Of a stretch of DNA of 64,000 nucleotides, positions 36,322-62,553 are shown in pieces (the stretch's first letter is position 1; the number at the start of each line of letters is the position of its first letter). The translations under genes were made by a program, and so were the position numbers. Below the pieces are notes generated by a model. The model was not told where the DNA came from. It did no database searches and saw nothing but the letters and a program-made list of their open reading frames with translations. Origin of the DNA: a virus; IMG/VR virus record IMGVR_UViG_3300045970_000046, positions 1 through 64,000 of that record; one strand, 5' to 3'.

Positions 36322-39243
36322 TTAGACAAGCTCACCATATTCGTCTACGACGTTATTTAGATGATCGCTGTCGTTCCGGTAGTAACGATCATCATAGTTT
36401 ACAGCACGTAAGGTCGTCGTGTAATTATCTTTTGGATCCTTTTCCGAAACCAAGAAGGCTTTTTCACGTGAACTAATATTGTCTACGATATGATAGACAG
36501 CCCTAGCATATAGGTCTTGATTTAAAGCTAGCGGTAACCGAGGAGCATGGTCTAGAAATACACTGCTTTCGGTCGAACCGTTACTAGCAACGAAACTCTC
36601 AATAGAACCATCGATATGTTGGATAAAGATTGTATACGTATGACCCGCAAGTAGCGTTACGGTCTGGGATAATTCTACTTCTAGTACGTTCTGGCCGATA
36701 ACCTCACCGTCCTGTGTTCCAGTACGAGTATTATCGGCTACGAGGATTCTATCTTGTACAACAAGGATCTCGGCTTCTTGTGTAGCTTCAAATTCAACGG
36801 AAACGTTTTGGTATTGGATCCTATTCCAGGCCCTTCTAGCAAGAAGATAAGCATGTAATTTACTGCGGATACCAAGACCTTCGATCTTACGTGGATTTAT
36901 AGAGCCGTATTGTGGAATACGGTATGTTAGAGGGGCCTCATCCTCAGGATCAACATAAGTTAGTTCAACACCGTCATAATTCTCGAGTGTACCGAAAGAT
37001 ATAGTCCGTGTTTCTGAACCAGGAAGCTTATTACGGTGGTTGAATAGTAGGATACTATCGTTTGTCTGTTTTTCAAACGATAGCATTATTAAGCTACCTC
37101 TCCGGTAAGCCATACAGAATACTGCCGTGGCTATAACCGTTATCATCTCTTCAAAAGACTCATTATCCTGATCGAACGCATGACCGAATTCAGATGCGTG
37201 GTATGTACCGAAATAAGGCTCAATTAGAGCTATAGTCTCGTATATATTCGATACATCTAGTTCACTTATAGCCCTACGACCAATATGCAGATCTAAACAG
37301 GCAGCACAGATCATATCTGCTACATTCTGTGTAGGAGATAGGGTAGTTGTGAAAGTATTCGTTGATCCTATACGAGTAGGTAGCTTCCTCGTAGTTAACA
37401 TATTGATCTTACGCTCTTTAACACTCGTTGCCGAAAGAGTCGCGTATGTTGACACATAGGCTGTAGTCACATCCCCAAAATCTACCGTAGCTGGAACTTC
37501 AACCAACGAATAAAGATCACGCCATTTAACCGTATCTACGACAGAAGTAGATCCCGTCGTTATCCGTTCATGGGCCGTATCGTTAACTGTAGTACGCCTA
37601 ACACGAATTTGAACCCTATGTCCAAAGAGCGAAGTTCCTACAATAGGGATATACATCGAAATAGCACATTGGGATCTTGTAGAGGCCGAACCAATTAATG
37701 TTGAAGTACGGAGAATAGTATCCGTAAGGATTGGTTCGTCGGCGTTATCTAAAGGTGTAAGCTCTACTTCGACATCTACCGCTAAACGTCGTTGATGATT
37801 CTCTCTATTCGTATAATATATACCGGATGGAGCAATAAAGTTTAACTGATAGGCTGTGGCTGTTTTATCATCGATAGTCACCGCCTTTATCCAGTTTGGT
37901 CCTACAGAACTGATAACTGGACTAAGGTAACCAGTCTTACCGGGAATACTAGCCCAACCTGGATTAATTGAATTAGGTGAATCTAGAACTATAGAGTCAT
38001 AACTAACGGCTAGAATCGTATAGGTACCGTTTAGATTTATACCTCCTGATCCAATAGTCGTGTTAAAGCATTCAAGTACACCGTTAGATCCTATGGTCGT
38101 CTGTAAACTAACTTCATCGTATTCGTAATAGTTAGTCTGGAGTAGAGTTTCAAAAGCTCCACTAATTACCGGATAATCTTGAGTATTATAGGGGTAGCTA
38201 CAGATAATAGCGTTAGGCGTACGGGCTAGTACCGTATATCCATAATCGAAGCACACGAAGCTCCGAACGTTACTAAACGCCGCACTAATCTGTAGTATGT
38301 CGCCCCCGTTAAGTGGAGGAGCGTCGTTATTTGGGAAGTGGACTGTAATAGGCCAATCCATAAAATCCGCCGTAAAATAGATATACGTGCCGGCTGTCGG
38401 TGGATTGATAATCACGTTTGATATATAAACCGACTGGCCAGCTACAAAGAGAGCGGCGAAATCTTCTTCCGGAGCCCCTATTAAATCTAGTTGTCCGGCT
38501 GCAGAAAATTGGACGTTAGCTATACCTCTAAAGACATTCGAGTTCTCAACTACTAGTTCCTGACCGTTAACAGACGAGTAGCGTTGTGTTGTATAGAGTG
38601 GTTCACCGATTAAGGACCCGGTTAATTGGTCTGGTTCAGAGCTATTAGGCTGCTTACCCGGACCGTAGATTTCAGCGGACAGACCTGTTATATCCGTGAT
38701 TAATGTACTACCGTCTTTAATATCACCAATCTCGTAAGAACCACGACCGATACATAGGTACGAAAATTCTACTTCCTGGTTATTAATAAATCTAGAACGC
38801 GGTACAGATATTAAATCTGGAGTACACCGTACAGTACCTAAGATATCCGGTATACGACCGTAAAGGCGCTCTCTATTCTGTCTACCCGATAGATCGTTTG
38901 TTGAAGAACGAGGGATCCTTTCCTTGTCCGGTTTAAATAGAATAGCCATCGTAATAACGGCTGCGATAGCTATGATAGATATGACAAGGGCGGTCACACC
39001 CATGTCGGCCGGATAGATAACAACGATAAACGAACCTTCTAGTGTCTTCAGGTGCTCTGTAGAGGCTTCGTCCTTGGGAGTAACATCATGGGTATTGGCC
39101 ACATGGTTATGGTAGATCCGGCCACCCTTTGGAAAAGACTCGTAATGCTCTTGTAAAAAATCTACAAGACTTTCATGTTCGTATGCAATCCACGAACTAG
39201 GTTCAAACGGATTCTCCGCTAATAGGATAGTTTTTAAGGACAT
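36322..39243 (-). CDS. tail tip / hub protein (J-like)
   Basis: LSGRQN..R...RIPDI.G.V...PDL; AVNYDDRYY; position. Confidence 0.85.
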   Translation of the reverse strand: MSLKTILLAENPFEPSSWIAYEHESLVDFLQEHYESFPKGGRIYHNHVANTHDVTPKDEASTEHLKTLEGSFIVVIYPADMGVTALVISIIAIAAVITMAILFKPDKERIPRSSTNDLSGRQNRERLYGRIPDILGTVRCTPDLISVPRSRFINNQEVEFSYLCIGRGSYEIGDIKDGSTLITDITGLSAEIYGPGKQPNSSEPDQLTGSLIGEPLYTTQRYSSVNGQELVVENSNVFRGIANVQFSAAGQLDLIGAPEEDFAALFVAGQSVYISNVIINPPTAGTYIYFTADFMDWPITVHFPNNDAPPLNGGDILQISAAFSNVRSFVCFDYGYTVLARTPNAIICSYPYNTQDYPVISGAFETLLQTNYYEYDEVSLQTTIGSNGVLECFNTTIGSGGINLNGTYTILAVSYDSIVLDSPNSINPGWASIPGKTGYLSPVISSVGPNWIKAVTIDDKTATAYQLNFIAPSGIYYTNRENHQRRLAVDVEVELTPLDNADEPILTDTILRTSTLIGSASTRSQCAISMYIPIVGTSLFGHRVQIRVRRTTVNDTAHERITTGSTSVVDTVKWRDLYSLVEVPATVDFGDVTTAYVSTYATLSATSVKERKINMLTTRKLPTRIGSTNTFTTTLSPTQNVADMICAACLDLHIGRRAISELDVSNIYETIALIEPYFGTYHASEFGHAFDQDNESFEEMITVIATAVFCMAYRRGSLIMLSFEKQTNDSILLFNHRNKLPGSETRTISFGTLENYDGVELTYVDPEDEAPLTYRIPQYGSINPRKIEGLGIRSKLHAYLLARRAWNRIQYQNVSVEFEATQEAEILVVQDRILVADNTRTGTQDGEVIGQNVLEVELSQTVTLLAGHTYTIFIQHIDGSIESFVASNGSTESSVFLDHAPRLPLALNQDLYARAVYHIVDNISSREKAFLVSEKDPKDNYTTTLRAVNYDDRYYRNDSDHLNNVVDEYGELV

Positions 39244-39590
39244 ATGTAGAACCTAATGTCGGGATAAATTCCGCGAAGTGTATCTAAGGACTCGTACTTA
39301 GCACCTGTTCCGGTAAGATGCAAGACGCGCCTACGGAGATAGACGCCCATATGTGGAGTGTCGCTCTTATTTCGCATAAGTACAAAGCACGGATCCACAG
39401 GTTGGGGTACACGGCTAAACTTTTTCACCGTATTTTTAGTAAGAAGTCCGTGTTTTGGGGGTAGGATCTCGGTAAACACGGGGGTCACGTTAGTCCCGGT
39501 AAGATCCTCCCAAACGTCACAAGCGAAATGTAGGCAGGTATAGGAGTTAATTTCATAGATACGCGAAAGATAGGGATCTACAGAGGTCAT
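39234..39590 (-). CDS. NlpC/P60-like tail assembly protein
   Basis: Y.C.HF...W ... H.GVY...VLHL. Confidence 0.8.
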   Translation of the reverse strand: MTSVDPYLSRIYEINSYTCLHFACDVWEDLTGTNVTPVFTEILPPKHGLLTKNTVKKFSRVPQPVDPCFVLMRNKSDTPHMGVYLRRRVLHLTGTGAKYESLDTLRGIYPDIRFYICP

Positions 39591-40123
39591 AAGAAACCCC
39601 TTAACATAGGGAATCTATCAACCGTATAGTATTCCCCGATACGATTAACGTTTAGTCTAGGTAGGCGGGCTTCGAAAGAAGAGCCTTCCCTTTTAAAGTT
39701 GAAACTATCTACCTCTAGGTTAATAGGACCGAGAATACGTTCTAGAGTATCCGAACGATATATCCTATAAACTACGCGGGGCTTTTCAGCGTATCCACTA
39801 CCAGGAGTCTGAGTTTCTGAGTCACGCGGAACCTGAGGAGAAGAAGCTATAGCGTCTAGTTCCTTCGGAAGAACCTCGCCAAGATCCCCTAGATCGATCT
39901 GGAAACCACCATCCAGATCGGCCTTAGATTTAATAGGCGTAATCCTAAGTGGATAGTAGTCAAAATGAAAGGTAGTAGCATCCTCTAGGACGACGGTTAT
40001 ACCTTCTATAGCGTTACGAACTATACGATAGGTACGAGTAAAGTTCGGATGACTAATCTCTAGTAGCTCTAGGGCTACTACATCTGATTGTGAATTTAAG
40101 AAAAATTCAGTATATAGACTCAT
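39587..40123 (-). CDS. tail tip protein (DUF1833/L-like)
   Basis: LEISHP.F...RIVRN ... GE.Y...RFPML. Confidence 0.8.
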   Translation of the reverse strand: MSLYTEFFLNSQSDVVALELLEISHPNFTRTYRIVRNAIEGITVVLEDATTFHFDYYPLRITPIKSKADLDGGFQIDLGDLGEVLPKELDAIASSPQVPRDSETQTPGSGYAEKPRVVYRIYRSDTLERILGPINLEVDSFNFKREGSSFEARLPRLNVNRIGEYYTVDRFPMLRGFL

Positions 40124-40124: not shown

Positions 40125-41441
40125 TTAACCCGGGAGTAAACCAGGAAGCTGATTATTAATCAGGAAGTTCAAGGCGTCAATAGTAGCTTGGTCTGTAGTA
40201 CCATTCAGGACTATAGCAGCGTATTCGCTAATAGCCTTACGTGTCTGGAAAACTTCCATTGTTGCCTGAATCGTAATATACTGCCCTATCTTACTTGCAA
40301 CCTGAACACTCCCTGGAAGGAAACGAGCCGTACATTCAGAAGGAGTGGAAGAATCTAGTATTAGATCAACCTGGAACGGTAGAGAACAATCTCGAAGTCT
40401 ACCGTAGAGTAACCAGAAAATTTTATAGTCTGTGGGATTTAGCTTCCATTTAGCCGTTACAATAGACGAGGAATTTTGGATACCGGGACTATACCGACTT
40501 AGACCAATTCCATATTCGATACTGATAACTTCGTCGTCTTTATCGGTAACGGTATATCCGTCCTGCAGTGGAACAAGGTATAGCTTCCGTGCCGGAGAAT
40601 CCGTAGCTACTGAAGCATGACCCGAAGCTGAACCACCTAGACCAACAGGCCCGTAGGTTCGAATATCGTCTTTAGTGGAAGCATGACCCGCGGCTGTACC
40701 TGTAAGGTCTACGGTACGAGATGTATGAGGTAAGGCCGTAGCTCCGGCATGACCTCCGGCGGTACCTCCCAAAGGAACAGGACCGGTAGTCTCTCCGGTT
40801 ACATCCGCATGTCCGCCAGACGTACCCCCTAGTAGAACGTCGGTCTGTAGCCCTGTGGCCACAGCACCCGCGTGACCAGAAGCTACCCCTGAAAGTGGAA
40901 TACTGCTTGGGTTCGTCCCGAAATAACCGGTAGGTACAATTTGAATGGCAGCTGTACCTCCGTCTGTACCTACGAAGTGGATAGGTGCTAGTTTAAGTGA
41001 AACCGTTGAATTATCAGTGCTAGTAAACGAGAGTAATGTACCAGAGGTATCTAGTACATCGGCCGTAGCCGTTATATCTACTACTGTACTATGACCGGAG
41101 GCTGTACCGGATAGCCGTGTAGGTACAGTATACGAGAGTACGGACGTTAAAGCACCGCGACCACCAGCGGTACCGGCTAGTGAAGTAGGCCCTGTACTCG
41201 TCACACCGGCTGTTCCGGAACCATGACCGGCAGACACACCACCTAATGACGTCGCTGTTGGAAGTTGAGTTGTTACCGTAGGACTAGATACAGTCGCCTG
41301 TCCGGAAGCGGTCCCGGAAAGCGGTATACGTATAGATTCTACCGTCACGTCATTAACAGTAATGGCTCCAGATCCGGGTACTACCCGTAAGGATAGAGTT
41401 GCATTACCTAGCGGTAACGTGAGGGTAGTTATAACCTTCAT
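40125..41441 (-). CDS. Gly/Thr/Ser-repeat stalk fused to distal-tail-like domain
   Basis: L.G.A.GHA repeats; C-terminal ~150 aa aligns by eye with 48919..49281. Confidence 0.75.
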   Translation of the reverse strand: MKVITTLTLPLGNATLSLRVVPGSGAITVNDVTVESIRIPLSGTASGQATVSSPTVTTQLPTATSLGGVSAGHGSGTAGVTSTGPTSLAGTAGGRGALTSVLSYTVPTRLSGTASGHSTVVDITATADVLDTSGTLLSFTSTDNSTVSLKLAPIHFVGTDGGTAAIQIVPTGYFGTNPSSIPLSGVASGHAGAVATGLQTDVLLGGTSGGHADVTGETTGPVPLGGTAGGHAGATALPHTSRTVDLTGTAAGHASTKDDIRTYGPVGLGGSASGHASVATDSPARKLYLVPLQDGYTVTDKDDEVISIEYGIGLSRYSPGIQNSSSIVTAKWKLNPTDYKIFWLLYGRLRDCSLPFQVDLILDSSTPSECTARFLPGSVQVASKIGQYITIQATMEVFQTRKAISEYAAIVLNGTTDQATIDALNFLINNQLPGLLPG

Positions 41442-43060
41442 GGAGTAGCCGGAAGTGTAAGTGTATCTACTACAACACCGTTAACTAGAACTTCCACCTG
41501 ACCACCTGTCGGAGAAGTGGCGTCAAGCTGCAACTGTAGGGGACGAGTCAGAGAATTCACAGTTTGAATATCCAGACCGGTGTCAGGGTTTAACGGTGCA
41601 TTCAATGATATGGTACCACCGTCTACCACAATACAATGCTGATTTGAAACCACCCCTACCTGAGAATCAACATCGGCCAGGTAGTCTCTAGTTCCAACCA
41701 GACCACCTACAGTTCTGGCTACTACGCGTACCTGCCAGTAATCGTCACCCCATGAGGTTAATTGATAGGCGTTATCGGTCCATCTGGAAACAGGTGGACC
41801 CTGATATACGCGTGTACCGTTAAGCCATAGCTCCACTTGGTTTACTGTATCGGAAGAACAGAAAGCTCCGAGGTCAACACTTACAGTACCACGAACTTTT
41901 ATATGAAGCAACCCTTCGGAATGCGTATCTTCGATCCCAATATCGTTATGAGCAACATTGTACCAGTCATCTGTATGCGTCTCCCCACGCCCCTTGAGGC
42001 GTAGATACGGAAAGACTTTATTGCTATTTCCTGGGAGCGTTGATTCAGCCTTCAGTACGGCGAGTTCTGCGTCAACTACACCGACCCCTGCGGCAGTATT
42101 GTAAAACATATCTACTTTCCATCCCTTTTTAGGTCTGGTAGCTGTCGAGATTAGTATATTTCTAACCTGTTCATTTGTTAGTGAGGGATTTTTCGCCCAC
42201 ACAAGTTGAGCAACACCACCAACCACAGAGGCGATATTAATCAGATTTGGGTTCCAAAAACCTACTGTTCCAGGAAAGGGAAACTTACCGTTTTCGTGAA
42301 TAGCCGAAATTCCCATATGGATCTGAGAGGCCAGTATGTCTACACGAGGTCCGTACTGGCCTCGGTAGGTGGATCCGGGATGCAGCATACTAAAGACACA
42401 CCGGGCCTCATCGTCAATCCTAACTCCTCCAACACATAGAACGTGCGGGGCATCACTAGGGCTGTAGGCGGTAGCTGTTGGATTAGCTATAAATGTTTCA
42501 TCGTCTCCAATATAAGAAACGACTAGGCATCCAGCCGACCACGCATTGGCAACGGCAAGGGCTACAGCCGAGCCGGTAACGGTAGGACCAGCCGGGGCTG
42601 TTGGATGGACGGTGACGATTACACGAGCGCCTGATGCAACGAGAAAATCTATCCCAGCTGCCATCGCCGAGGCACTTACACCCATGGCGAGCTGAATCCC
42701 ATCTACTGCCGTCGCTAGAGTAGCTTCCGGGGCAACACCGTATAACCGTCCGGTTCCACCCTTACCTACAAGAGTAACAGCCGGATTGATAGAGTAGCTA
42801 CCTCCACCACGGCCACTATTGATATTAGTCCCGCCGGTGGAGATATTCCGAGCAGCTATAACCTTACCTGTTAGTTCAGGGGTGTTGGGAAAGAAGTTAG
42901 GGTAGGATCCAGCCTCGCCAGGATATTCAGCACATATAAGTCCAATAGGAAAGGTTGCCGCTCCCGTACCTATTGTCCACGCCTCGTATACATGGGACCG
43001 CTGGAACGTATGCTGCCTACCAAACAAGGTGCTCTGATATGGGAGCTTATACCGGATCAT
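41438..43060 (-). CDS. S8 subtilase-like pseudoprotease
   Basis: YGVAPEA, YGPRVDILA, V.GVA.LVWA.NP.LT..QV..IL..TA, but no DSG/HGT/GTS motifs; GAAGGAGGAG RBS. Confidence 0.8.
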   Translation of the reverse strand: MIRYKLPYQSTLFGRQHTFQRSHVYEAWTIGTGAATFPIGLICAEYPGEAGSYPNFFPNTPELTGKVIAARNISTGGTNINSGRGGGSYSINPAVTLVGKGGTGRLYGVAPEATLATAVDGIQLAMGVSASAMAAGIDFLVASGARVIVTVHPTAPAGPTVTGSAVALAVANAWSAGCLVVSYIGDDETFIANPTATAYSPSDAPHVLCVGGVRIDDEARCVFSMLHPGSTYRGQYGPRVDILASQIHMGISAIHENGKFPFPGTVGFWNPNLINIASVVGGVAQLVWAKNPSLTNEQVRNILISTATRPKKGWKVDMFYNTAAGVGVVDAELAVLKAESTLPGNSNKVFPYLRLKGRGETHTDDWYNVAHNDIGIEDTHSEGLLHIKVRGTVSVDLGAFCSSDTVNQVELWLNGTRVYQGPPVSRWTDNAYQLTSWGDDYWQVRVVARTVGGLVGTRDYLADVDSQVGVVSNQHCIVVDGGTISLNAPLNPDTGLDIQTVNSLTRPLQLQLDATSPTGGQVEVLVNGVVVDTLTLPATP

Positions 43061-45473
43061 AAACTCCTCCTTCAATGTTACCGGAGATATCAATCCCGTA
43101 GAATTGTAGCTTTCCCGACTGGGGCGTAAGCGGAGCAAGATACGTGCTCCACGCTCCAGAACCCCACCGGTACCTAATTGTTACAGGAGCATTCTCACTA
43201 ACAGACGACAGTATGATAGTACCACGGGTGGCGGTAGGCCACGAAACCGTGGTAAGTGGAGCAGCAGCTGCAGAGGTGTGACCAATAACGTCGACATACT
43301 CCTGCTCGACGGTAAGCGTAGAGGTTCTAGCAACTAATTTTAGAAGATTCCCAGCTAGAAGTCCGGAGTTCAAAGGGATTAGCGAGTCCCATGTAGTTCT
43401 AGCCCCTCCTTGGTAAACCATTGTAGATCCGGCCCATAATTCCAAGGAGGTAATAGGATCCGAAGAATAGGCTATGAGCTCTACATATATAGTTCCATGG
43501 AGATGAACGGTAGGAACCCCCGAGCTCCAAACTACAGCATCACTGATAAGAATGGGAATATACCGCCCCATGATATCTCTTTTAAAGAAATTGCAGTAAG
43601 GAAAGATATGTCCTGCAAACTCCGGGACTAATGACAGCGCCTTGCTAACGGCCTTTCCTGCATTCCAAATACCCGGTAACTCAGGAAATAATGTTGTAAA
43701 ATCTGGATTCTGAGGCTTATCCCAAGTATCTTTAGCTATCTGACAGATCTGAAGCCCCGTTAAATCCATGTTAGCTGAACCGATTAGGGCACAAATTCCC
43801 ACTGAAAAGGGGGTAGCAGAAGACGTACCGTTAAAATAGGTGTAGTCCACTAGAGCGTTGTTTGGATTAGAAGGAGTGAACCACTCGAAATCGCTATCTA
43901 TAGCTCCGGACGTTGCGATCCCAGTTCCAGCCTGGTGGTAGACAGAGGCTAGAATCTGATGTCCATGAGCCACCGCATTAACCTTAGGACCGTAATTTGA
44001 ATAGCAAGCACGCTCGTCAAGCCGGGTGGTCTCTAGACATCCAACAGACAAAAATCCATATTCCTTACAAAGATTTCCGGGACTTCCCGACATGCCCGTA
44101 GAGTAATTACACGCGGCAAATAGGGCTGCGTCGCCGCGATCTCGGAGCAGGTCGAATGTTGTCCTATACTCCGCCAATAATCCACCGGTAGAAGTGTACG
44201 CAGAGCCCCAGGAATTATTCGAAATTTTAGCCCCCAACAGGGAACCCATTATCAGGCCCTCTGTTAGAGCCACAATGGTGACATAAGTTTCTCCCGGGGC
44301 TAGTTCCGTCCGCCAAGAGAAACCATTACAGCTAAACAAGGAGCATTCAGGAGCGACGCCAACAGGCCCGGCCTTTAGAGGTGAGGATCCTACGTAGTCC
44401 GGTTTGTTAGCGTTAGCCAAAATGACACCGGAGCAGCAGGTCCCGTGAGTTGCGGATCCAGCCGAATTATCCGTGCTGGGCCCGAATACCCCCTTACCGG
44501 GATTAAAACGGATTACTTTCTTTCCGGCAAACGCAGGCCACTGCTCTGCCGCAGTTGGGTAAAGGGGGCCTCCAGGGACTCCTAGGGTCGGATCACTAGC
44601 GGGACCCGTAAATGTAGAGTTAATTATTAATCCAGAATCATTTACCGTGACTAAGAAATCCGGGTGCCCCATCGTATACTTCCACGCCGAAAAGACATCC
44701 GACCGTAAGTGAGAATACTGTCTGGGAAGAGCCGCATCGCTGGCCCCATGGTATTTGCGTTTGGAAGTTTGATAGTTAGGGAGCCTAACATTAGTCGTAG
44801 TAGCCGAAGCGTGGGCTGTATCTACAGATGTTCTTGGCCCAGAGGAGGAAGCCCGCAGCGAAATATAACGGCCTTGTTTGGTACCTTCTACAGAAATTGT
44901 AGATGAGGGAACAGGCCCTGCACTCGGTTGCACCATACTCCATATACCTAACCCGTGGTTGAGTGCGTCAGGTCCTAACAAAATATCTGTAGATAGCGGA
45001 GGACCTACAGGCGTAGTCCACCACGTACTCAGAGTATCATAGTCATAACTAAACTCGTAATTATGGGCTAATAACAGAACAAGGCTGTTCTGCCCTAAAG
45101 TCGTAATTGAAGGAACAACTAGATCCGTGTATACAGTGATGTCGGGACTTGTGGCCGTAGCGAGCGAACCCACAACCTCTATCGGGGCTGTGGGATCACA
45201 ATCTCTATAGGCCGCCATAATAATATAGCCTGTACTATGGGCTATGTCGACGTTTTCATCAGTTAATACTTTGTAGCAAATAGCGAAGAAAGTTGAAGTT
45301 CCTCCCGCAGAATTTGAAGCTCCTGGGACTAGGGTCCAACCTGTAGGAGCCGAGCTAGTTCCGGTGATGAAGGCTATAACTACATCACCAGCTTCGAGAC
45401 CCGAGGGTACACCTTCCTTAGTGGGATCATCCCCACGGTACTTCCCTGTACTTACAAGATATGGGATTCTCAT
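43047..45473 (-). CDS. S8 (subtilisin-family) serine protease with extra N- and C-terminal domains
   Basis: VNDSG (D279), HGTCCSG (H343), NNSWG, AACN, NGTSSATP (S551). Confidence 0.92.
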   Translation of the reverse strand: MRIPYLVSTGKYRGDDPTKEGVPSGLEAGDVVIAFITGTSSAPTGWTLVPGASNSAGGTSTFFAICYKVLTDENVDIAHSTGYIIMAAYRDCDPTAPIEVVGSLATATSPDITVYTDLVVPSITTLGQNSLVLLLAHNYEFSYDYDTLSTWWTTPVGPPLSTDILLGPDALNHGLGIWSMVQPSAGPVPSSTISVEGTKQGRYISLRASSSGPRTSVDTAHASATTTNVRLPNYQTSKRKYHGASDAALPRQYSHLRSDVFSAWKYTMGHPDFLVTVNDSGLIINSTFTGPASDPTLGVPGGPLYPTAAEQWPAFAGKKVIRFNPGKGVFGPSTDNSAGSATHGTCCSGVILANANKPDYVGSSPLKAGPVGVAPECSLFSCNGFSWRTELAPGETYVTIVALTEGLIMGSLLGAKISNNSWGSAYTSTGGLLAEYRTTFDLLRDRGDAALFAACNYSTGMSGSPGNLCKEYGFLSVGCLETTRLDERACYSNYGPKVNAVAHGHQILASVYHQAGTGIATSGAIDSDFEWFTPSNPNNALVDYTYFNGTSSATPFSVGICALIGSANMDLTGLQICQIAKDTWDKPQNPDFTTLFPELPGIWNAGKAVSKALSLVPEFAGHIFPYCNFFKRDIMGRYIPILISDAVVWSSGVPTVHLHGTIYVELIAYSSDPITSLELWAGSTMVYQGGARTTWDSLIPLNSGLLAGNLLKLVARTSTLTVEQEYVDVIGHTSAAAAPLTTVSWPTATRGTIILSSVSENAPVTIRYRWGSGAWSTYLAPLTPQSGKLQFYGIDISGNIEGGVYDPV

Positions 45474-45871
45474 TAGGTGAACCGAAAAGACGGATTAGAT
45501 ACTCGTAAGATATCTCCAGTATCACTCATCAGCCTTGTCTTATGGCCTAGTTCTAAAATGGCGATTAAGGCTCCGGAGGTTCCGGAGGCAACCGTGACAA
45601 GTCCGATATACCGGATAGGTACGGCGGCTGTAAATCCAGTAAATTCAAAGTTCCCCGAGCACGTAAACTGGCCTGCAACAACAGTCATATTCAACTGTGG
45701 ACAATTAATTCGAGAGTATGTCCCAGTTACGGCAGTAACTTCCGCCATATTCGCCAACGTGGTAGTATCGGATCTATCCGTTAGAGCCGCTAAATAAATA
45801 CCGCCCGGCAAGGACGCGATAAGTGCAAGACTTAGGGCCTGAGAACCCTCGATAGGAATTACAACGGCCAT
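45473..45871 (-). CDS. small virion beta-sandwich protein (paralog of 48319 and 62170)
   Basis: YLAAL...AEV....Y.R...F.G...GL...G.L. Confidence 0.7.
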   Translation of the reverse strand: MAVVIPIEGSQALSLALIASLPGGIYLAALTDRSDTTTLANMAEVTAVTGTYSRINCPQLNMTVVAGQFTCSGNFEFTGFTAAVPIRYIGLVTVASGTSGALIAILELGHKTRLMSDTGDILRVSNPSFRFT

Positions 45872-46110
45872 TATTGTGTCTCCACTAATGACTCGAACCA
45901 GACATTGGCCACAGCAGGGTGGGCTTCATAACGAAGGATTGCCGTGGATACGTTTGCGGTACCGACAAAAACCTCTAACACCATCGCGTTCGGATACATA
46001 TTTAGCGTACGTCCCCCACACTCCTGAACTACACATAGACCTAGATCCTGGTCCCAATACTTCAGTCGTACCATCAATCTATCTAGTAGTATAGGGAGGG
46101 CCATATCCAT
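45871..46110 (-). CDS. stand-alone S8 pro-domain / inhibitor I9-like protein
   Basis: DRLMVRLK...GG...VLEV...AILRYEAHPAVANVWFE resembles subtilase propeptide pattern. Confidence 0.55.
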   Translation of the reverse strand: MDMALPILLDRLMVRLKYWDQDLGLCVVQECGGRTLNMYPNAMVLEVFVGTANVSTAILRYEAHPAVANVWFESLVETQ

Positions 46111-46112
46111 AC

Positions 46113-47108
46113 CTAGTATGATAAGCCACCTAGTTTAATGTCGTAAATTAGTCCGGATCCGAAGAGGTATAAGAACGTGCTCGCCGGAGTAGGCCAAGCA
46201 CCAGCCGTATTTAAGGTTACGTTTTGAATCCCATCTATGAAAGATAAAGTAGCACTCGTTCCCAGTCGGAATTCTATCCTGTATAGTTTATTTACCAACG
46301 GAGTTGGAACTAGATTAATTTGTTCTAAACCACCAGCTACACTAATACCAGACCAAGTCCCTAGCTCAGAGTCGTACCCAGCAGAGAATCCGTTTGTATT
46401 GGATAATAGAGTCTGCAAGCTTGCGGCGGTAGTATAAGTGCTTCCAGACAGCAAGGAAAATAGTCCGGAGCCATTGATACTATTCGTGGTCCTAGCGGCG
46501 CACCTAAATTCGAGATACCAAGGAGCGTCCTGCATTCCGGTAATACTAGCCTTAATAACGTCCGCGCCAGCCATGGTGACTATACCAGCCGAAACCGTAG
46601 GGGCACCTGCTACAATAGAGAACTGACCTAGAGTATTGGATGCAAAATCTTCATAGAGGACAACGCTGGGAGTGGTTTGAATAGTTAGAGTACGAGGACT
46701 CGCGAATAAGGCCGAAATATTACCAGCCGCGTCTTTGGCCCATGGGTAGAACGTTACGGATCCACGACCCTCCGCAATCCAGGAAGTTGGCACAGTAGCT
46801 ACCCACTTAGGATCTGCGGGGGACGGTTTAGTAGCGGATTCTGTAATTAAGTATCCTGCTATACCGCCAGCATGCGTTGCGTTAAGATTGTTAATCAGAA
46901 TACGAGCCCCGAGATGGGCTGTGTCATTGGCGTAGAGATTAAACGCATTCATTGAGGGAAGAGTATCTTCCACCGTAAAGGACCTACCGGAGACTACCAC
47001 CGTACCGTTTACTTTCATATCAACAGACTGAGCACCCCCGGCCATAGCTACATCCGGAATGGACCAATTTCCTGCCCCGTCAGCCGTAGTGGACCCAAGT
47101 AAAGCCAT
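46113..47108 (-). CDS. Ig-like + lectin-like domain protein
   Basis: GYLITES..P...W...P........YPWAKDAAGN.S; N-terminal half Ig domain. Confidence 0.75.
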   Translation of the reverse strand: MALLGSTTADGAGNWSIPDVAMAGGAQSVDMKVNGTVVVSGRSFTVEDTLPSMNAFNLYANDTAHLGARILINNLNATHAGGIAGYLITESATKPSPADPKWVATVPTSWIAEGRGSVTFYPWAKDAAGNISALFASPRTLTIQTTPSVVLYEDFASNTLGQFSIVAGAPTVSAGIVTMAGADVIKASITGMQDAPWYLEFRCAARTTNSINGSGLFSLLSGSTYTTAASLQTLLSNTNGFSAGYDSELGTWSGISVAGGLEQINLVPTPLVNKLYRIEFRLGTSATLSFIDGIQNVTLNTAGAWPTPASTFLYLFGSGLIYDIKLGGLSY

Positions 47109-47110
47109 AG

Positions 47111-48112
47111 CTATGTCCCCGTATCGTAAATAGTAACAGTTGATCCGGCCGCCGCGGTACCCGAGAACGTAACGGAGGCCGATGTAGTCTGACCAGCGGT
47201 CGGTGTTGCAAGTGTGTTCGAAACCGAACCACCTGAAATACTGACGGTTGAGGTTGCCCCCGCAATCCCAGCTCCGCTTCCCGCGATAGGCGCCGGAGCC
47301 CCCGTCTGGGTTCCGCTGCCACCAGAGCCAAGGCCTCCAGCCGAACCACCAAGAGATACTGTAGTAGCTGGTGCACTGGTAGTATCGGCCTGACCACCGG
47401 CAGCCCCGGAGAGGGCCGAGTCTACGATAACCGCACCGGCCGAATGTATCTCAATCGTCGCGTTAGGAACGACGACGCCGCTGAATGTAACCAAGGCCCC
47501 AACAGTAGACCCTTCAACCGGGAATTCCATAGACGCATCGGAGCCCGTCGATAGAGTCCCAAAAGATCCAGCCTGACCAGCGGCGGTACCACCCTGTGGA
47601 CCAGAAGTTGCCGCGGTTCCCTGTCCACCGGCGTGCCCCACGGAGGTCCCAGAGAGAGGAACAACCTGAGACAACGGGGCCGTAGCACCGGCCCGACCAC
47701 CAGCCGTAGCTTGTAACGGAGTTTGACCCGGTGTTGTTGTAGATATCGGACCTAGTTCGTTACCGTGGCCACCCGCTGTACCACCTAGGCCAGTAGAAAC
47801 ACCAAGAGCGGCGGTGGTTCCCCCTAAACCACCTGCCGCGCCTGTTGTTTTCCGTTCAGTGGATAGAATCCCACTTACATCTGCGTGACCCGACGTTGTT
47901 CCACCAGCTCCACCAGTGTCTAGTTGAGCACTAACGGTGGCCCTACCCGCAGCCGTTGCTTCTAGTATAAGTCCGAAGGGTAAAGGTGATTCCCAATAAC
48001 CTGAACTGTTGGCCTGAACAGGAGTAAGAGCCTGGCCGGCGACGGTAGGCGTCACAAAAGCGTTTGGAGTGGTTGAACCCCAAACCTTTACTCCACCAAT
48101 CTGAACAGGCAC
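47111..48112 (-). CDS. Gly/Ala/Thr-repeat protein with Ig-like segments
   Basis: L.GT.GG.A repeats; VTFSG motifs; GGAGG RBS. Confidence 0.75.
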   Translation of the reverse strand: MPVQIGGVKVWGSTTPNAFVTPTVAGQALTPVQANSSGYWESPLPFGLILEATAAGRATVSAQLDTGGAGGTTSGHADVSGILSTERKTTGAAGGLGGTTAALGVSTGLGGTAGGHGNELGPISTTTPGQTPLQATAGGRAGATAPLSQVVPLSGTSVGHAGGQGTAATSGPQGGTAAGQAGSFGTLSTGSDASMEFPVEGSTVGALVTFSGVVVPNATIEIHSAGAVIVDSALSGAAGGQADTTSAPATTVSLGGSAGGLGSGGSGTQTGAPAPIAGSGAGIAGATSTVSISGGSVSNTLATPTAGQTTSASVTFSGTAAAGSTVTIYDTGT

Positions 48113-48127
48113 GAAAACCTCCGGAAA

Positions 48128-48307
48128 CTACTTCGTACCGGTAGAACTAGCCGCGCGGGCCGTACCAGATAACGGAGTAACTTTTCCGGTAGTCTTCTCC
48201 TTCTGACCTGCGTTACTGGCCCCCTTAGCATCACCGCTTAACTTAGTGGGAGGAGTTTGAACACATGAACAAAGGACGACTACTAGAGCCACTAGAAGGA
48301 TCTTCAT
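48128..48307 (-). CDS. 59-aa lipoprotein-like ORF (not in ORF track)
   Basis: MKILLVALVVVLCSC; carries LSG.A.G/LSGTA repeat; fills gap. Confidence 0.6.
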   Translation of the reverse strand: MKILLVALVVVLCSCVQTPPTKLSGDAKGASNAGQKEKTTGKVTPLSGTARAASSTGTK

Positions 48308-48318
48308 AGTGGCACCGA

Positions 48319-48891
48319 TTACTGCTCTGTAACGTGAAGCGCCCCTGCCGTAAACGACGCCGTCGAGTTCTGCGTAACGGCTACAGGGGCGTTATTCACA
48401 GCACCCCAGTAGAGTAGGTTACCGGCGGTAGCTGCATCGTAAATCCCAAAGCACTGAACGGACCACGAAGTACCGCTGCTGTTAGTCCAGGCGGCGCTAC
48501 CGGAAATGGAACCGGCATTAACGTACTCGTCGGTATTCGTGTAGGTATTGCAGTTACCGGTACCGGAACCAGTGCAGCAGGTAAACGGCGCCTGGCTAGT
48601 GGTGCACGCACCGTTGGTCGCGTGTGTCCAACCGGTACCATTAGCGATAGCCGCCGAACGAGTAGTATATCCGGGTTGCGAACCGCTATTAAATTCAACT
48701 CCGGCGGTACCAGCCGCAGGGCACGTCGAGAATAACCCGACATAGGTATTGACCGGAGCCGAGAACGCCGTATTACCGAAAATCTCACCAAGCACCTTAG
48801 CCGAAAGATACGAATACTTCCCACCGGCCACGGCTAACAGCGGAAGAACTAGGGCGAGGGCAACAACTGCGAACTTCTTATTAAACTTCAT
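48319..48891 (-). CDS. virion-type beta-sandwich protein with signal peptide and Cys-rich insert
   Basis: MKFNKK-hydrophobic-AVA; YVGLF..P...G.E...GY; GIYDAATAGNLL; GAAGGAG RBS. Confidence 0.75.
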   Translation of the reverse strand: MKFNKKFAVVALALVLPLLAVAGGKYSYLSAKVLGEIFGNTAFSAPVNTYVGLFSTCPAAGTAGVEFNSGSQPGYTTRSAAIANGTGWTHATNGACTTSQAPFTCCTGSGTGNCNTYTNTDEYVNAGSISGSAAWTNSSGTSWSVQCFGIYDAATAGNLLYWGAVNNAPVAVTQNSTASFTAGALHVTEQ

Positions 48892-48918
48892 CGGATACTC
48901 CTTCAAGCGGTGGAACAG

Positions 48919-49281
48919 TTAGGAAACGATAGCTAAAGTAGCCTTAACAAGATACTGATCTCCGTGAATCTCCGCCAACTTCATCGTACCTTTTACGAAT
49001 TGTACAGTATGCTCAGATATTGTAGGATCGTCTACCAATAAATTGATCCGAAAAGCTGATGCCGTAAACTGGACTAACCTATAAAACGCACGAATATAAT
49101 CGTATTCTTGAGCATTACAATACCATGTAACGTCAATATGAGGCAATGTTTTATTTATAGGCTTAATTGAAGCCCTCCGGAATTTAGAGAAGCCTCCTTC
49201 AACAGCGAACTTTATTACATCAGCCTCAAATGTAATCCTATAACCTGATTCTTCCGGTGTAAGGTCTAGGGCTATAGACAT
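48919..49281 (-). CDS. distal tail (Dit/M-like) protein
   Basis: directly after tape measure gene; P...GY...V....GG.S.F...V.W...Y...FY. Confidence 0.75.
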   Translation of the reverse strand: MSIALDLTPEESGYRITFEADVIKFAVEGGFSKFRRASIKPINKTLPHIDVTWYCNAQEYDYIRAFYRLVQFTASAFRINLLVDDPTISEHTVQFVKGTMKLAEIHGDQYLVKATLAIVS

Positions 49282-52200
49282 TAGCGCTTCCGTCCAGTCG
49301 TAGTATGCGACGAGAGGGCCTTACTGACTCGACTATTAGCGTTTATAATATCTCTGGCCACAATGCTAGGTGTATGCGTCTGGACGGCGGCCAGGGCCTC
49401 TTCGCGGGCGATAATCCGAATATCGTTCCCATTACGTTCAACACTGATATTGGAAGGTGTGTAATTCTCAATTTTCACGTTAACTTGGGTTCCGCTGGCG
49501 CCCGCCTTACCGGGGGATCCCCCACCACCCGCACCAGAGGACCCCCTATTTAGAGCCTCTAGCATTGGACGGTAGCGCCGGGTAGCCTCGGCATTAACAA
49601 CATACTCCTGCCCATGGACTAGTCCAGCTACTTCACCTGTAGGACCATCACCGGTGTAGCCACCGACCATATAACCGGTAGAGATAAGATCACGCTTTAC
49701 CGTAGAAGTTGTATCTAGAGCTTGGTAAGTAGACTTATTCTGGAATGTCGAATTAGTAGACGAGCTATACGACCTGAACATCTCGGGTGTAATGGTCTTG
49801 CCCTTGTTTAGATCTTCTAAGAGAGGGCGGTTCTTTTTAGTAGCGGTGGCGTTAAGTACATACTCCTGACCGTGATAGAAGCCCGCTACACTATTAACGG
49901 GACTATCACCGGTGTAACCGCCAGACTTCATTCCAGCCCCACCGATAGCTGCTGCGATAGCCGCGGTAGAGAGCATCGATGCGTCAGCCGCTAGACCAGC
50001 CGCGCCGAAGGTCGCGATACTCACAAGAGCTGCCGGTCCTGCCCACATGGCCCCCGTTTCGGCGGCCATGGTAGCTCCGGCTGCCGTTGCGGTCGCCATA
50101 CCCATAGTGGCTATAGCCCTGTTAACGAGGAATTGTAGGCCAATCTTAATTAAGGAGCTAAGTAATTCGGCTAGGATATTACGAGATATATCACCTAACG
50201 TCTTTTCTAGGTTTTCACCGAATACAATAGCTCTTGCGAACGCCGTACCAATACCATCTATTAACTGTGTGACGGGTTTCGCAAAGGTGGAGCCTAACTG
50301 ACGGGCGAAGTCAGTGGTACGTCGGCTAAGTAGGTCGATCTGTTTAAGCATACCGTCGAAGAAGGTACCTTCTCCGGACTGTATATTAGCTTCCGCTTGT
50401 AAATCGCGGAGGTCCATCTTAACACTCTGTATCCCAGATTCCACCGCTCCCCAATCCGTTTGACCAAAGATTGGAGTAGCATACGTATTTCCGGTTTCCC
50501 AGTCGCTAACCGGATTCACGTGACCAATTACAGGGGTGTTATCTTTAATCAACTGAGCTGTAGACTTCTCTAACACTTCTTTGTTAACCTGTTCTTGGAC
50601 CTTAGGCTTTTCGGCACGACGATTAATCGTACTATAGAGACGGTCTACTTCCTGTGCTATACGCTTATACTCGGCCCTCTCTTCCTGTAGTTTATTAATA
50701 CGAGACTGGGCTGCAAGCTCATTAGTTGTAGGTACGTGGCCAAGCTCCCGTTTAAGTTTAAGCTCATCCTCCATAGCTTGAAGTAAGCCCTTACGGGCTG
50801 CGGAGGACCCCTTGTAAATACTAATCTCGCGTTCAAGAGCGGCTTCTAATGTCTCAAGTGGGAATAGGGCTTCCTTAGAATGTTCCACATAAGCGGCGAG
50901 TAACCTGTTACGCTCTGCCATCGTAATAAGCGTCTCTTGTGTAACAGTACCGTCAGGTTGCACAACAGGGGCGGCGACCGGCAGGGCTGCAGAGGCGTCT
51001 AATAATCCCTTAGCTTGGTCTAGGCGGATCTGAGCTGCAAAGACAGGACTCATCTGTTTCTGAATCTCTTCTAGGCCGCGCTTGTATTCTTCAATCTTGC
51101 CTTTGTCTAAAGCAAAGATGGGTTTCTTGGCATCTTTACTGATATCGTCCTTAGTCCCCTTATTAGCGGCGTCTGTACGGGCTTTAGCCGTCTCCCGGAA
51201 CTTAGAAATAAGCCCATCTAACTGGGACATTACGCCATCGGTCCAATCCCCAATACGATCACCACTGAAGGACCAAGTCTTTAACTTCTCCATATCAGCT
51301 AAGAGTTTATCGAACGAACCCTTAGCATTATTTTCTACTTCAAACTTAACTGGAGTAATGGTTGCCGTAGTGCCAAAGAGTTTCTTAAAGATAGCACTTT
51401 GGGCTACAGAGTTTAGCCCATCTATAAGTGTATTTATGATAGGAGCGGCTAACTGGGCTAGGCCGCTAAGAGCTTGTGAGAAGATATCCGTGAGTACACT
51501 AGGTATGCTACGGAGTAGTAGAGGAATAAGATTAGCTACATAGTCTACACTACCCAGAATACCATTCAGGATCCCCTTAAAGATTGTTATCGTCGCCTTT
51601 GTAATCCATTCAAAGAGGCTATAAATCTTACGTTCAATAAAGACGAGTAGTTTATCCCAACCGCTCAAGGCCTCTATAGGATCGATACCCTGAGGCTTAT
51701 GCGACGACATACTAGATGTTACAGAAGAGGCCTGAGGAGAAGAGGCTAGTGAAGCTCCGCTGCCCGGGGCCTGTCCTTGGACTAGAGTAGATTGTACCGT
51801 CTTAGCTATTGTATTCTGAAGAGTAGAACCGCTCGTAGGACTAGTATTATCCTTGAAAACGTCAGTCTTATAACCGGCCCTCTTATTTAGATCGCGTGTA
51901 ATTAAGGCGATATAAAGCTTAGTTTCATCGGCTAATTGATCGAAGACGGTAGTTAGATCCTTAGTCTTATCTAAGAGTTTTCCACCGTTAACTTTATCGG
52001 CCCGGTTAGGTCCGCCGTTATAACCAGCTAGGGCTTTCTCTACACTACCATCGAATTTATTTAATAGCTCACGGAGGTAAGACGTACCTCCTTCGATATT
52101 ATTCTTTGGAACATTTGGGTTAACACCCAAATCCGCAGCAGTCTTTGGCATCAGCTGCATTAAGCCAATCGCTCCAACAGGTGAAAGAGCGTTTGGATTA

Positions 52201-55200
52201 TTATTAGACTCCTGCTTCATTACGGCCGCTATAAGATGTACGCTTACATCGAACTGCTTAGCCGCATCGATAATATCCTTACCGTAAGGATGACTCGTCA
52301 TCGAGGCGTCGTCTTTAGGATTATAGCCCCAAGCTACTCCCTCTTCAGAACGCGGAACAACCGACGGTACCTGTAACGCGGTGGCCACAGGCTCCGGGGC
52401 GCCGAATCCGAGCTTCTGTAAGAAGGGGAACGTATCGGATACAATCTTACCGAGTGTCCTAAATACGTCACCTAGTGTAATCCCGGCTACTTCGATATTA
52501 TCCCTAAAGAGGTATAGACCTGCGGTCAAAGCCGCTAAAGCAGCTACACTAACACCTAGCGGGTTAGCGGACATAAAGCCAAGCATACCGGAACCGACGG
52601 CTCCACCGGCTGCAGCCCCCACCGCCCCTCTAGTCGCGACTCCACCAGCCGCTGTAAGCGGTGTAACGCCCCATGCCGGTAGAGCAGAAACGGCAGCACC
52701 CTGCGCTGTTTGACCAATCAGTTTAGATATACCAGAAAGGGCCGCGGGAATGGCTAATGCGGCTAGTGCGGCGGCTACCGTACCTAGACTGGCCGCTAGT
52801 TTATCGAGGTTACCGCCTAACCAATCGATCATCGTATTAAACTTATCGGAAATCTTATAAGCTTCGTTAATCTCTCCTACGAATTTAGTAACATTCGTAG
52901 ATAGGTTGTTAAAGCCTTGAGCGAACGATCTCTGAACGGTGTCGACTTCTTTATCAAGTTGACTTGTATCTGCCAAGAAAGCCTTAAACACTACCGACGA
53001 ATCGATAGTTTCTTCTTCCTTACCCTTAATAAGCTGCTTCCAGTTTAGACCACCACCACGACGATTCTGTTCTTCTACGGCCTTACGAAACATCACAATA
53101 GACTTACTACCACCCTGTAGATGATCGGCTATACCCTTTAAGATTCTAGGTGTATTTTCTGAAATCGAGTTAAACTCCTGCATACGAATCTTACCCATAC
53201 CTAGCATCTGACCTAACTGTAAGAGGGAACCTCTCGCAGCGTCAGCACTGGTACCTTGAATGAGTAAGGCTTTACCGACGTTCTCTACAAATTGGATGGC
53301 CGTAGCTTGTGAAGCGCCAACGGTTAGGGAGGCCATAGAGATACGACGGTAGAGTGTAACGACGTCGTCAAACGGTTGACGAGTACGTAAAGCGACTTGG
53401 ACTAGTTCTTCCTGGACAGCCGTAGCCTCTTTAACACTTGAGGTTGAAAGTCGGACGCTGTTACTGGCGTTAATCCAACCGTCAGCCGATTGCTTTAACT
53501 CACGAATCATTAGGAAGCCCGCAAACATTTCGGCCGCCATCCGGATATACCAGAGTTGGCGAACGAAATGAGCGGCAGAACTAGTGGCCTGCTGGGCGGC
53601 CCTGGCATGAGAGTTGTATCCGGCAGTCGTCGAAGCTAATGCCCGGCCTGTTCCGTAGATCGCGTTATTATACTGCTGGGCTGTGATTGTACCTTCCCGG
53701 TATAGACGGTTAGCGGCTTCCTGGCGAGCCGTACTAACTCCCGGCGCCGGAGAATTGTACAACGAGTTCAACTTAGCCATCTCGGCATTTAAGGCTACAA
53801 CGGCCTGTCGCTCTTCGACACGGCTCCTAACAAGTTCCCGATTAGTATTGTTGAGAGGTTGAACTGCCTGACCCGGGGCTGTTGTAGCTTCAGCGACACG
53901 GGTATAAGCCCCTTCCATCTGGACACTACGTTGATATTCCTTATGGGAGGCTACCCCCTTAGCTAGAGCGTCACCTTCCTTATTCAAGGCGGCTACTTCA
54001 CGATCTAGTTGAGCAATGTAAGCGTCGATAGAGGTAGTCGTCGCCTGTATCTCGTTTGAAAGCTTACCAGTACCGCTCATTGTAGCTTGTCCGAGTTTAC
54101 CAGCCGCCGTACCAGCCCTATCGAAATCAAGGGTTAGTTGGCCTACACCAGCAGAGGCTAGTTTGGCCGCGGTAGAGATAGTCTTAACTTCGGTGGCCAC
54201 AGTACCGGCGCGAGAAGCGGCCTCTTGTAGGAAACGTTCCTGCCGGGCGGAGTCTTCCAACCATGTTACGCCGGTCGACTTATCTGTAAAGTCAAGTTGA
54301 CGGGTAGTAAGTTCTTCTTTAGTCTGACCCTTCAAAGCTTGCTTATCAGCACCGGGAGCCGTCAGATTAAGACTCATCTGGGCTTTAGTTTGCGCCGCGG
54401 CTAGTTCTTCAGTAGCCTTCGTCTTCTCACGTAAGGCCCGAGCTTCCGCTAGGATACGTTGTTCCTCGATCGGAGAACCGGCAAACGCCCTACGACCAAC
54501 ATCACGGGAAGCTAGTTCGTCCTTAATCTCCTGATTTACATCTTTGGGCTTAGTTCCAGGGATCGTCGGAGTAGTGGGTGCGAGTCTACCACCTTGTAGA
54601 TTCAACGTAAGTTGTTGAATGTTCTCGGCAGCTTCTTTAGCCTTAAGGGCAGTACCTCCTAATTGAGCTTCCATTAGAGGCATGAAGCCTAGAGACTGTT
54701 GACCTACAGTTCCAAGCTGACGCAGCTTAACCGAAAGTATCTCAGCCTCGTCCGTCATCCGCTTAATAGCGAAGCCACGGGAATTACGGTCTACCTCTTC
54801 GTTCCAAGGAACACCACCCGTAGCGAATTCACGCTGGGGTGGGCGCATGGCGTTAGTTGTGGCTAATTCAACTTCACGTTGCCTAACAACATCTTGATAG
54901 TGTGCTTTTGTATCCGGAGGATGAACTACTTCGGGCCGGGCAAACATATCCATTTGCCCAGTAGTACCTAAATCTTTATTAGCGACCTTTAACTGTGCCA
55001 GTAGGTCTAACTGCTTCTTAGTCTTATCCCCAAGCTGGACTAACTGGTTAGAGCACTCAGTAATAAGTGTCCTTGGTTCAACCTTAAGTAATTCCGCACG
55101 GATCTGATTTATCTTAGCTTCGTACTCCGCCATTCCTTTGTCTTTAGGAATAGGCGGAGGCTCGTCCCAAGGATCGGGAAGCTTAGGCCGAGGAACATTC

Positions 55201-62169: not shown

Positions 62170-62553
62170 TTACGTGATGGAGATAGTTAGGGCGCTGACC
62201 GTGTAAGTGCCGTTAGAGCCGTAAGCACCTTCAGCCGCCGAAAGAGCTCCAGAGCCACAGAAGTCGGCGGCTACACCAGCCGCAGCGATACGCCACAGGC
62301 CGTAATGACTGAAGGCGTCACCGGCCTGGACGGAGATAACGGCACTTGCCCCAAGACCCTTGCTACCAGCCGCAGCCGCAGCCATATTTAACTGGACGCG
62401 GGCATACGGGGCTCCGGACATCTCGTTAGCCGACGCTGTCGCGAACACACCGGCCGGATCGGCACTGTGTAACGAGATATAGGTACCGGAGGAAGCACCC
62501 GTACCATAGCGCTGATCGAGTTCGTAGTTACGGGCATCTACTGACTGGGGCAT
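62170..62553 (-). CDS. small virion beta-sandwich protein (paralog of 48319 and 45473)
   Basis: YISLHSADP...ANE.SG..YAR...HYGLW. Confidence 0.75.
   Translation of the reverse strand: MPQSVDARNYELDQRYGTGASSGTYISLHSADPAGVFATASANEMSGAPYARVQLNMAAAAAGSKGLGASAVISVQAGDAFSHYGLWRIAAAGVAADFCGSGALSAAEGAYGSNGTYTVSALTISIT

Follow-up and report, generated by a model that had tools for sequence, protein, structure and literature searches.

The window analysed here is a 64,000-nt stretch of the virus record IMGVR_UViG_3300045970_000046, which represents an uncultured siphophage. Between its tape measure gene and its L-, K- and J-like tail-tip genes lies a block of nine genes, A to I, one of which (G) encodes a subtilase of the S8 family. 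Our best reading of this block from its sequence is a virion-borne protease. More fully, we propose, at a probability of about one in two, that the block encodes beads-on-a-rope side fibres at the tail tip and that these fibres carry the subtilase. The open reading frames (ORFs) A to I fill positions 40125-49281 of the minus strand with spacings of -14 to +12 nt (gaps and overlaps calculated from their coordinates), and a tenth ORF, of 59 amino acids (aa), lies among them at 48128-48307. These coordinates and the profile matches of the neighbouring genes agree with an initial annotation, made from the sequence letters, that had described nine tightly coupled ORFs between the tape measure gene and the tip genes.

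An intact subtilase and its dead paralogue

The product of G was matched by the Pfam family Peptidase_S8 (PF00082) with 68.7 bits against a cut-off of 21.8, and with 70 bits in the genome scan. In an alignment of 11 sequences (G, nine relatives and the dead paralogue H, which is the exception), its catalytic residues D279, H343 and S551 and its oxyanion residue N456 are each conserved in at least 90% of the sequences, and H343 and S551 align with mirolase. In an AlphaFold2 model of G, most of residues 240-808 have a predicted local distance difference test score (pLDDT) above 85. Foldseek matched this model to thermitase (1thm; target template modelling (TM) score 0.87, E 1.6e-17) and also to fervidolysin. 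By profile, by catalytic residues and in its predicted fold, G is a true S8 subtilase, and the intact D279/H343/S551 enzyme named in the initial annotation is borne out by all three. None of the nine block proteins gave a Pfam match to Peptidase_S74.

The product of H is 28% identical to G and has the same C-terminal beta domains, but lacks the N-terminal domain. Its match to PF00082 is partial (32.4 bits), and in the alignment with G all three catalytic residues are lost: a deletion has removed the Asp region, and Tyr and Asn stand in place of His and Ser. H is thus a pseudo-enzyme of the family fold, as had been claimed from the letters alone.

The presence of H raises the possibility that G and H are both receptor-binding heads that grip a host protein or peptide by the subtilase cleft, catalysis being irrelevant. 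The H gene has lost its triad and yet is intact and looks well expressed, with a strong Shine-Dalgarno sequence. A precedent of a kind is the tail-fibre protein of the archaeal virus HFTV1, which weakly resembles the subtilase CspB in structure and has no shown activity (PMC12494034). We consider this explanation quite improbable, since neither G nor any of its nine aligned close relatives has lost Asp, His, Ser or the oxyanion Asn, and a dedicated prodomain gene, described next, is also kept. The kept catalytic residues and the prodomain gene together point to selection for catalysis.

A separately encoded prodomain

The product of E aligned over its full length with the N-terminal domains of G relatives, with phmmer E-values of 8e-10 (relative P0006), 5e-8 (P0002) and, for others, up to 1e-3. 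These N-terminal domains match the Pfam family Fervidolysin_NPro-like (PF22148; 21.7 bits against a cut-off of 21 for P0008), while E itself matched no Pfam family at E <= 1. A model of E made with the alignment of the relatives has a pLDDT of 89.3 and the order beta-alpha-beta-beta-alpha-beta (E-H-E-E-H-E). Its top Foldseek matches were pro-subtilisin E (3whi, E 3.6e-4) and the prosegment of subtilisin BPN' (1spb_P; target TM 0.80, root-mean-square deviation 2.1), and the Tk-subtilisin propeptide was also among the best PDB matches. On sequence and predicted fold, E is a subtilisin prodomain. The initial annotation had counted E among "small virion-type beta proteins"; that assignment fails, as homology and model both indicate the alpha/beta prodomain.

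E stops where the relatives of G go on into a linker and the catalytic domain. This suggests that a pro-subtilase is encoded here in pieces: the prodomain (E), a bead-type protein (F) and an enzyme with a different N-terminal domain (G). No second stand-alone prodomain of the E family was found, the word-index search, which is of limited reach, having returned only E itself. Subtilisin prosegments act as foldases and as tight inhibitors, and are effective in trans too. From this behaviour we infer a double role for E, which would fold G and hold it inactive up to the release of the particle from the cell.

The pro-subtilisins and fervidolysin (MEROPS S8, with an I9-type or fervidolysin-type prodomain; 1spb, 3whi, 1r6v) share with the phage proteins the catalytic fold, the triad and the prodomain fold, and fervidolysin has, like G, extra beta-sandwich domains after its catalytic domain. 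They differ in that the phage prodomain has a gene of its own, which lies two genes upstream of that for the catalytic domain, and that a signal peptide is lacking; the N-terminus of G instead bears a domain that also occurs on a phage baseplate protein.

Relatives of G carry fibre and baseplate domains

An exhaustive HMMER search among 1.84 billion representatives returned 285 relatives of G, 10 of them below 1e-30. Most are about 600 aa long and come from metagenome contigs of up to 64 kb, those with P0004, P0009 and P0018 being 22.6, 55 and 64 kb long. Their usual layout is a prodomain, then an S8 domain, then a pair of beta domains. In the N-termini shown, the prodomain comes first, with no signal peptide ahead of it, as expected for enzymes that are made by a phage and not secreted.

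Three relatives depart from this layout. In P0004 a Gp80 domain, the fold of known fibre beads, replaces the prodomain ahead of the S8 domain. In P0018 the beta domains are followed by repeats of about 20 aa of a GTLPS type, which look like a rope. In P0067, a Mu Gp48-like baseplate protein, residues 136-308 match the N-terminal domain of G and stand behind the Mu Gp48 baseplate domain. Such fusions speak for an enzyme that belongs to the fibre, and they favour the initial annotation's placement of the subtilase on an appendage.

In tblastn searches of phage records, G gave no match at E <= 1e-5 and three weak S8 matches (E 0.1-0.5) at E <= 1, and a word-index protein search with G gave nothing. 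No locus was confirmed when contigs of viruses, metagenomes and genomes were scanned with G, the J-like protein, the alignment of the relatives, P0018 and P0004. More distant S8 genes do occur in phages. Synechococcus phage S-H38, a T4-like cyanophage, has a gene for a 550-aa "subtilisin-like serine protease" between baseplate wedge genes (4843-6495 of the examined stretch). BFVD holds further cyanophage S8 proteins, among them an S-SCSM1 entry named "baseplate wedge subunit", as well as S8 proteins of 683 and 689 aa from uncultured Caudovirales. Public records therefore already contain S8 genes in phage tail or baseplate modules, which weakens the initial annotation's claim of an undescribed system. 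Like G, these proteins have a subtilase domain encoded among tail or baseplate genes; unlike G, they have no known bead, rope or split-prodomain context. No characterised tail-borne S8 protease was found in the open-access literature searched. The S74 intramolecular chaperone proteases (endosialidase, T5 pb1) likewise place a serine protease domain on a phage fibre protein. They are of a different fold and clan and remove themselves, whereas G is an S8 enzyme with its own prodomain.

Bead protein B and candidate bead F

Chain-like fibres have been solved in the podophages GP4, A1002 and VP1 (PMC13730344) and in the myophage Bas63 (PMC12609058). In these fibres, proteins of the Gp80 fold form dimers that are threaded like beads on a "rope" and bound to it by beta-augmentation (PMC13730344; PMC12609058). 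The rope is a separate protein in GP4, in whose fibre I it bears gp80 dimers; in A1002 it is part of the nozzle protein gp39, on which 11 dimers of two different bead proteins, gp40 and gp41, are threaded (PMC13730344). The collar ring protein of Bas63 carries the rope as an extension at its N-terminus, the fibres of this type in Bas63/Sf14 being the collar whiskers (PMC12609058).

The product of B was matched by Pfam Gp80 with 62.6 bits against a cut-off of 27, and it matches a chain of GP4 gp80 (8jou_a, PDB 8JOU) at 6.7e-7, the alignment starting at residue 32 of B. The start codon given in Table 1 is preceded by a GAAGGAG Shine-Dalgarno sequence. For F, the assignment is indirect. F itself gave no Pfam and no PDB match, but it is 47% identical (5e-29) to residues 5-111 of P0004, whose N-terminus, fused to an S8 domain, was matched by Pfam Gp80 (26.8 bits, E 7e-6). 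Through P0004, F may be assigned as a second Gp80-type bead. Genes of this type are widespread, occurring in at least 492 phage records, of which 412 are mycobacteriophages. Bead-type fibres may be common in siphophages and yet unannotated, the architecture being perhaps both common and under-annotated. In Mycobacterium phage P3MA, a gene for a Gp80 relative closes the minor tail block, following one for a Gly-rich minor tail protein (5816-7378 of the examined stretch).

B begins with a Sec-like leader (48816-48891), MKFNKK followed by 15 hydrophobic residues, which is unexpected for a virion protein. The leader is 25-30 aa long and is missing from GP4 gp80. It could be a substrate for G, in which case G would be a morphogenetic enzyme that trims fibre or tail parts (the B leader, the rope proteins, the tape measure protein) and does not act on the host. 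The longer bead of A1002 offers a parallel, its first ~30 residues being missing from the map, for which the authors suspect proteolysis (PMC13730344). Furthermore, neither a prohead protease gene nor any other protease was seen in the genome, although a scaffold gene is present. Several points make such trimming unlikely as the role of G. In GP4, in phages of the Rollin/A1002 type and in many mycobacteriophages, the Gp80 bead genes have no S8 neighbour, and the A1002-type long bead of phage Rollin (171 aa) has no hydrophobic N-terminal leader to be removed. The make-up of G, a prodomain-dependent subtilase with two extra beta-sandwiches and with bead and rope fusions in its relatives, also looks like that of a stable extracellular enzyme.

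Putative ropes, duplicated ring proteins and a candidate head

Repeats of the LxGTAxGHA type make up most of C and of the first 285 residues of I. In C, the repeats were located by motif positions and by an autocorrelation peak at 20. In I, there are nine repeats of 22 aa at residues about 38-285, with a break at 120-180. The two proteins match each other by BLASTP (5e-5), and 8 of the 11 stretches of C matched by a repeat hidden Markov model (HMM) built from I score positive. C gave no Pfam, PHROG or PDB match. The same period of 20-22 aa is found in the neck protein of this phage and in GP4 gp79, whose gene adjoins gp80. By analogy with the solved fibres, the repeats of C and I are putative ropes, and their contacts with the beads are presumed. 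The Gly/Thr repeats that had been noticed in C and I are confirmed by the repeat period and by the BLASTP and HMM matches; their description as "stalks" is not, as they are better read as ropes on which bead dimers dock.

The C-terminal part of I is a ring domain, matched by phrog_384 on residues 288-433 (1e-10) and by the gene after the tape measure gene of Acinetobacter phage HD01 (5e-14). A matches the same HD01 protein (8e-16) and is a paralogue of residues 287-397 of I (3e-10). A word-index protein search with the ring domain of I gave nothing. Since A and the C-terminal domain of I are paralogous and both are homologous to the single HD01 protein, the block is bracketed by a duplicated ring-protein gene, of which one copy (I) carries rope-like repeats. 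Repeats fused to a phrog_384 domain would be the rope-to-ring-protein fusion expected of chain-like fibres. The "evolved" Dit proteins of lactococcal phages carry extra binding modules. They too combine a ring protein with an additional module; here that module is a putative N-terminal rope and not an inserted sugar-binding module.

The end of C and the start of D (47059-47219) read as one bacterial Ig-like domain divided between the two genes. The junction, read directly, consists of TAG, 2 nt and ATG, with D in another frame. Readthrough of the C-terminal TAG was rejected as a continuation of the Ig-like domain, because the translation does not continue it. The remainder of D may be a ligand-binding head. 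Atlas features pointed towards Big_7/Big_13 clusters at 0.88-0.90, and for residues 145-331 Atlas structure rows pointed to 3keto-disac_hyd/Laminin_G_3 with TM 0.44-0.60, both as leads only. Of the Ig/CBM/lectin-like modules claimed in the initial annotation, the Ig-like and ConA-like parts of D have these Atlas leads.

The tenth ORF, absent from the nine listed, shares the reading frame of C, with one TAG codon lying between the two. It weakly matches the repeat HMM (E 0.064, rank 2 of 422 ORFs), and may be either what remains of a former N-terminus of C, now truncated, or a small exported protein in its own right. The stretch 45400-48950 is identical, this ORF included, in two separately assembled contigs (depths 132 and 16) from two pond-metagenome runs, which may derive from the source sample. 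Being identical in both contigs, the split Ig-like domain and the in-frame TAG are no obvious assembly errors.

With a Sec-type leader on B and a lipobox-like leader on the 59-aa ORF, part of the block could instead be exported. B, the small lipoprotein and perhaps the protease would then act at the infected cell's envelope, to exclude superinfecting phages, mask receptors or aid release. We find this the least credible of the alternatives. The seven proteins from C to I lack a leader, and the Gp80 fold, rope repeats and ring-domain fusion are virion parts in every solved case.

A second set of such genes lies at the neck. The 717-aa head-closure (Hc1) protein (59047-61200) has about 590 N-terminal residues of 22-aa Ser/Thr/Gly repeats, and two genes upstream of it a third Gp80-like gene (62170-62553, 127 aa) was matched with 23.9 bits, below the cut-off. 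Together they resemble a second set of rope and beads in this phage.

A proposed subtilase-bearing fibre

In the fibre that we favour, I would be placed within or next to the post-tape-measure ring and extend its nine-repeat N-terminal rope from there. C would provide a second rope ending in half an Ig-like domain, which D would complete while adding a lectin-like head. Dimers of B and F would attach to the rope repeats through beta-strand addition, the mode of binding in GP4, A1002 and Bas63, and G would join the fibre via F, via its own N-terminal domain, or both. G would be made without a covalent prodomain; E, supplied in trans, would aid folding of the catalytic domain and inhibit G in the infected cell until E is lost or degraded. 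The mature virion would then carry an active serine protease beside the dead H, which is probably a binding or scaffold partner. The conserved catalytic residues, the prodomain gene, the fervidolysin-like beta-sandwiches and the fusions to fibre parts fit a stable extracellular enzyme on the particle.

The appendage had been put forward as a kind not described before. This novelty does not hold for the scaffold, which matches the chain-like fibres of GP4, VP1, A1002 and Bas63. Shared with those fibres are the Gp80-fold beads, the small-residue periodic proteins encoded beside them, the two bead genes (as in A1002) and the fusion of a putative rope to a ring protein (as in the Bas63 collar). 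The present system differs in being placed at a siphophage tail tip, with the putative rope fused to a duplicated protein of the gpM/Dit position, and in its subtilase, pseudo-subtilase and lectin-like head, which the solved fibres lack. We know of no chain-like fibre at a siphophage tail tip and of none with an enzyme. The block would extend beads-on-a-rope fibres from the necks and nozzles of podophages and myophages to this site, and such fibres may be possible enzyme carriers.

Several observations weigh against the proposed fibre. The N-terminal domain of G has a pLDDT below 50 in the model; it gave no PHROG or Pfam match, and Atlas gave weak viral leads only. The export-type leaders of B and of the 59-aa ORF sit poorly with assembly of virions in the cytoplasm. 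C and I have no sequence match to any solved rope or chain. Finally, GP4 gp79 is absent from the PDB by sequence and is therefore only a presumed rope.

For such an enzyme, the most likely use would be to cut a protein on the host surface as the phage adsorbs, H and D being its presumed binding partners. The complete scheme, in which the virion subtilase is silenced by its prodomain in the cell and then cuts through a proteinaceous host barrier, be it an S-layer, pili, flagella, or an outer-membrane or matrix protein, while the dead paralogue holds the substrate, is a tentative proposal. If true, it would be the protease counterpart of the sugar-cutting depolymerases. To our knowledge, the virion enzymes used for entry almost all cut glycans or peptidoglycan. 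A virion protease, if shown, would open a new class of tools, both for entry into hosts and for the removal of biofilms, and would add a determinant of host range. Being split, the zymogen would also be a natural example of control by a trans-acting prodomain, which frees the N-terminus of the subtilase for a docking domain.

Genomic setting of the block

The source of the window is a 75,119-bp virus record that CheckV rates complete and that comes from pond metagenomes; the stretch has no listed RNA holder. All late genes are on the minus strand. In late order, the head genes come first (terS, terL, portal, scaffold and major head protein), followed by a head-tail adaptor, the 127-aa Gp80-like gene, a 311-aa gene and the 717-aa head-closure protein. 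The tail terminator, a 505-aa tube protein, chaperones, the tape measure protein and the A to I block come next. Downstream of the block are the L-like (DUF1833), K-like and J-like genes and then a 1760-aa fibre gene. The features of the block and its borders are listed in Table 1.

Table 1. Block A to I and adjoining tail genes, in order of transcription (positions in the window).
Feature	Position	Strand	Length	Remarks
Tape measure protein with SLT lytic transglycosylase domain	49281..55661	-	2126 aa	Pfam TMP_3 1.2e-40, SLT 1.1e-24
A, putative first copy of the tip ring protein encoded after the tape measure gene (lambda gpM/Dit position)	48919..49281	-	120 aa	phrog_384 5e-9
B, predicted Gp80-fold fibre bead	48319..48906	-	190 aa	Length from probable start ATG 48891; Pfam Gp80 PF23140
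Unlisted ORF	48128..48307	-	59 aa	Lipoprotein-type leader (VLCSC), one or two rope-like repeats; from three-frame translation
C, rope candidate	47111..48112	-	333 aa	About 8 LxGTAxGHA-type repeats, period 20 aa, between partial Ig-like segments
D, candidate ligand-binding head	46113..47108	-	331 aa	Predicted Ig-like completion, second Ig/Fn3-like domain, ConA-like (LamG/DUF1080-like) domain
E, predicted free-standing subtilisin-type prodomain	45871..46110	-	79 aa	Predicted foldase and temporary inhibitor for G
F, putative second bead-type protein	45473..45871	-	132 aa	Overlaps the G start, translationally coupled; candidate adaptor placing G on the rope
G, predicted S8 subtilase	43047..45473	-	808 aa	N-terminal domain 1-233, catalytic domain about 240-620, two C-terminal beta-sandwich domains
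H, predicted catalytically dead S8 paralogue	41438..43060	-	540 aa	Length from ATG 43060; strong Shine-Dalgarno sequence
I, putative rope repeats and second tip ring domain	40125..41441	-	438 aa	Candidate fibre anchor on the tail tip
L-like minor tail protein (DUF1833)	39587..40123	-		phrog_396 5e-32; PF08875 26.8 bits; downstream border of the block
K-like minor tail protein	39234..39590	-		phrog_329 2.9e-5
J-like tip/hub protein	36322..39243	-	973 aa	phrog_469 5e-185

The upstream border of the block is the tape measure gene, whose very long product has its SLT domain at residues 1130-1225. The closest cultured relative of the J-like protein is that of phage HD01 (36% identity), in which the tape measure gene is followed without interruption by a gene for a 167-aa protein and then by the L-like, K-like and J-like genes. 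HD01 thereby illustrates the contiguity of siphovirus tip genes that had been assumed in the initial annotation. The lambda-type order of tape measure, M-like, L-like, K-like and J-like genes (gpM-gpL-gpK-gpI-gpJ in the lambda tip) is present here as in HD01, but the M-like ring gene is duplicated and its copies are separated by eight to nine genes. Both the position of the block and its tight coupling support its earlier assignment to the tail-tip operon. Promoter-like and terminator-like sites within it were not commoner than in shuffled sequence. The nucleotide sequence of the block gave no megablast match among 50,697 phage records.

The use of TAG as a sense codon was rejected, since TAG ends the tube, chaperone, C and D genes and another gene, and long ORFs are uninterrupted. 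In the head module (genome positions 64015-69497), a scaffold gene is present and no recognisable prohead protease gene was seen; even so, the position of the S8 gene makes it unlikely to encode the head maturation protease. The tail tube protein (57079-58596) was matched by Phage_tube_2 only at residues 264-480 of its 505 aa and has about 260 extra N-terminal residues.

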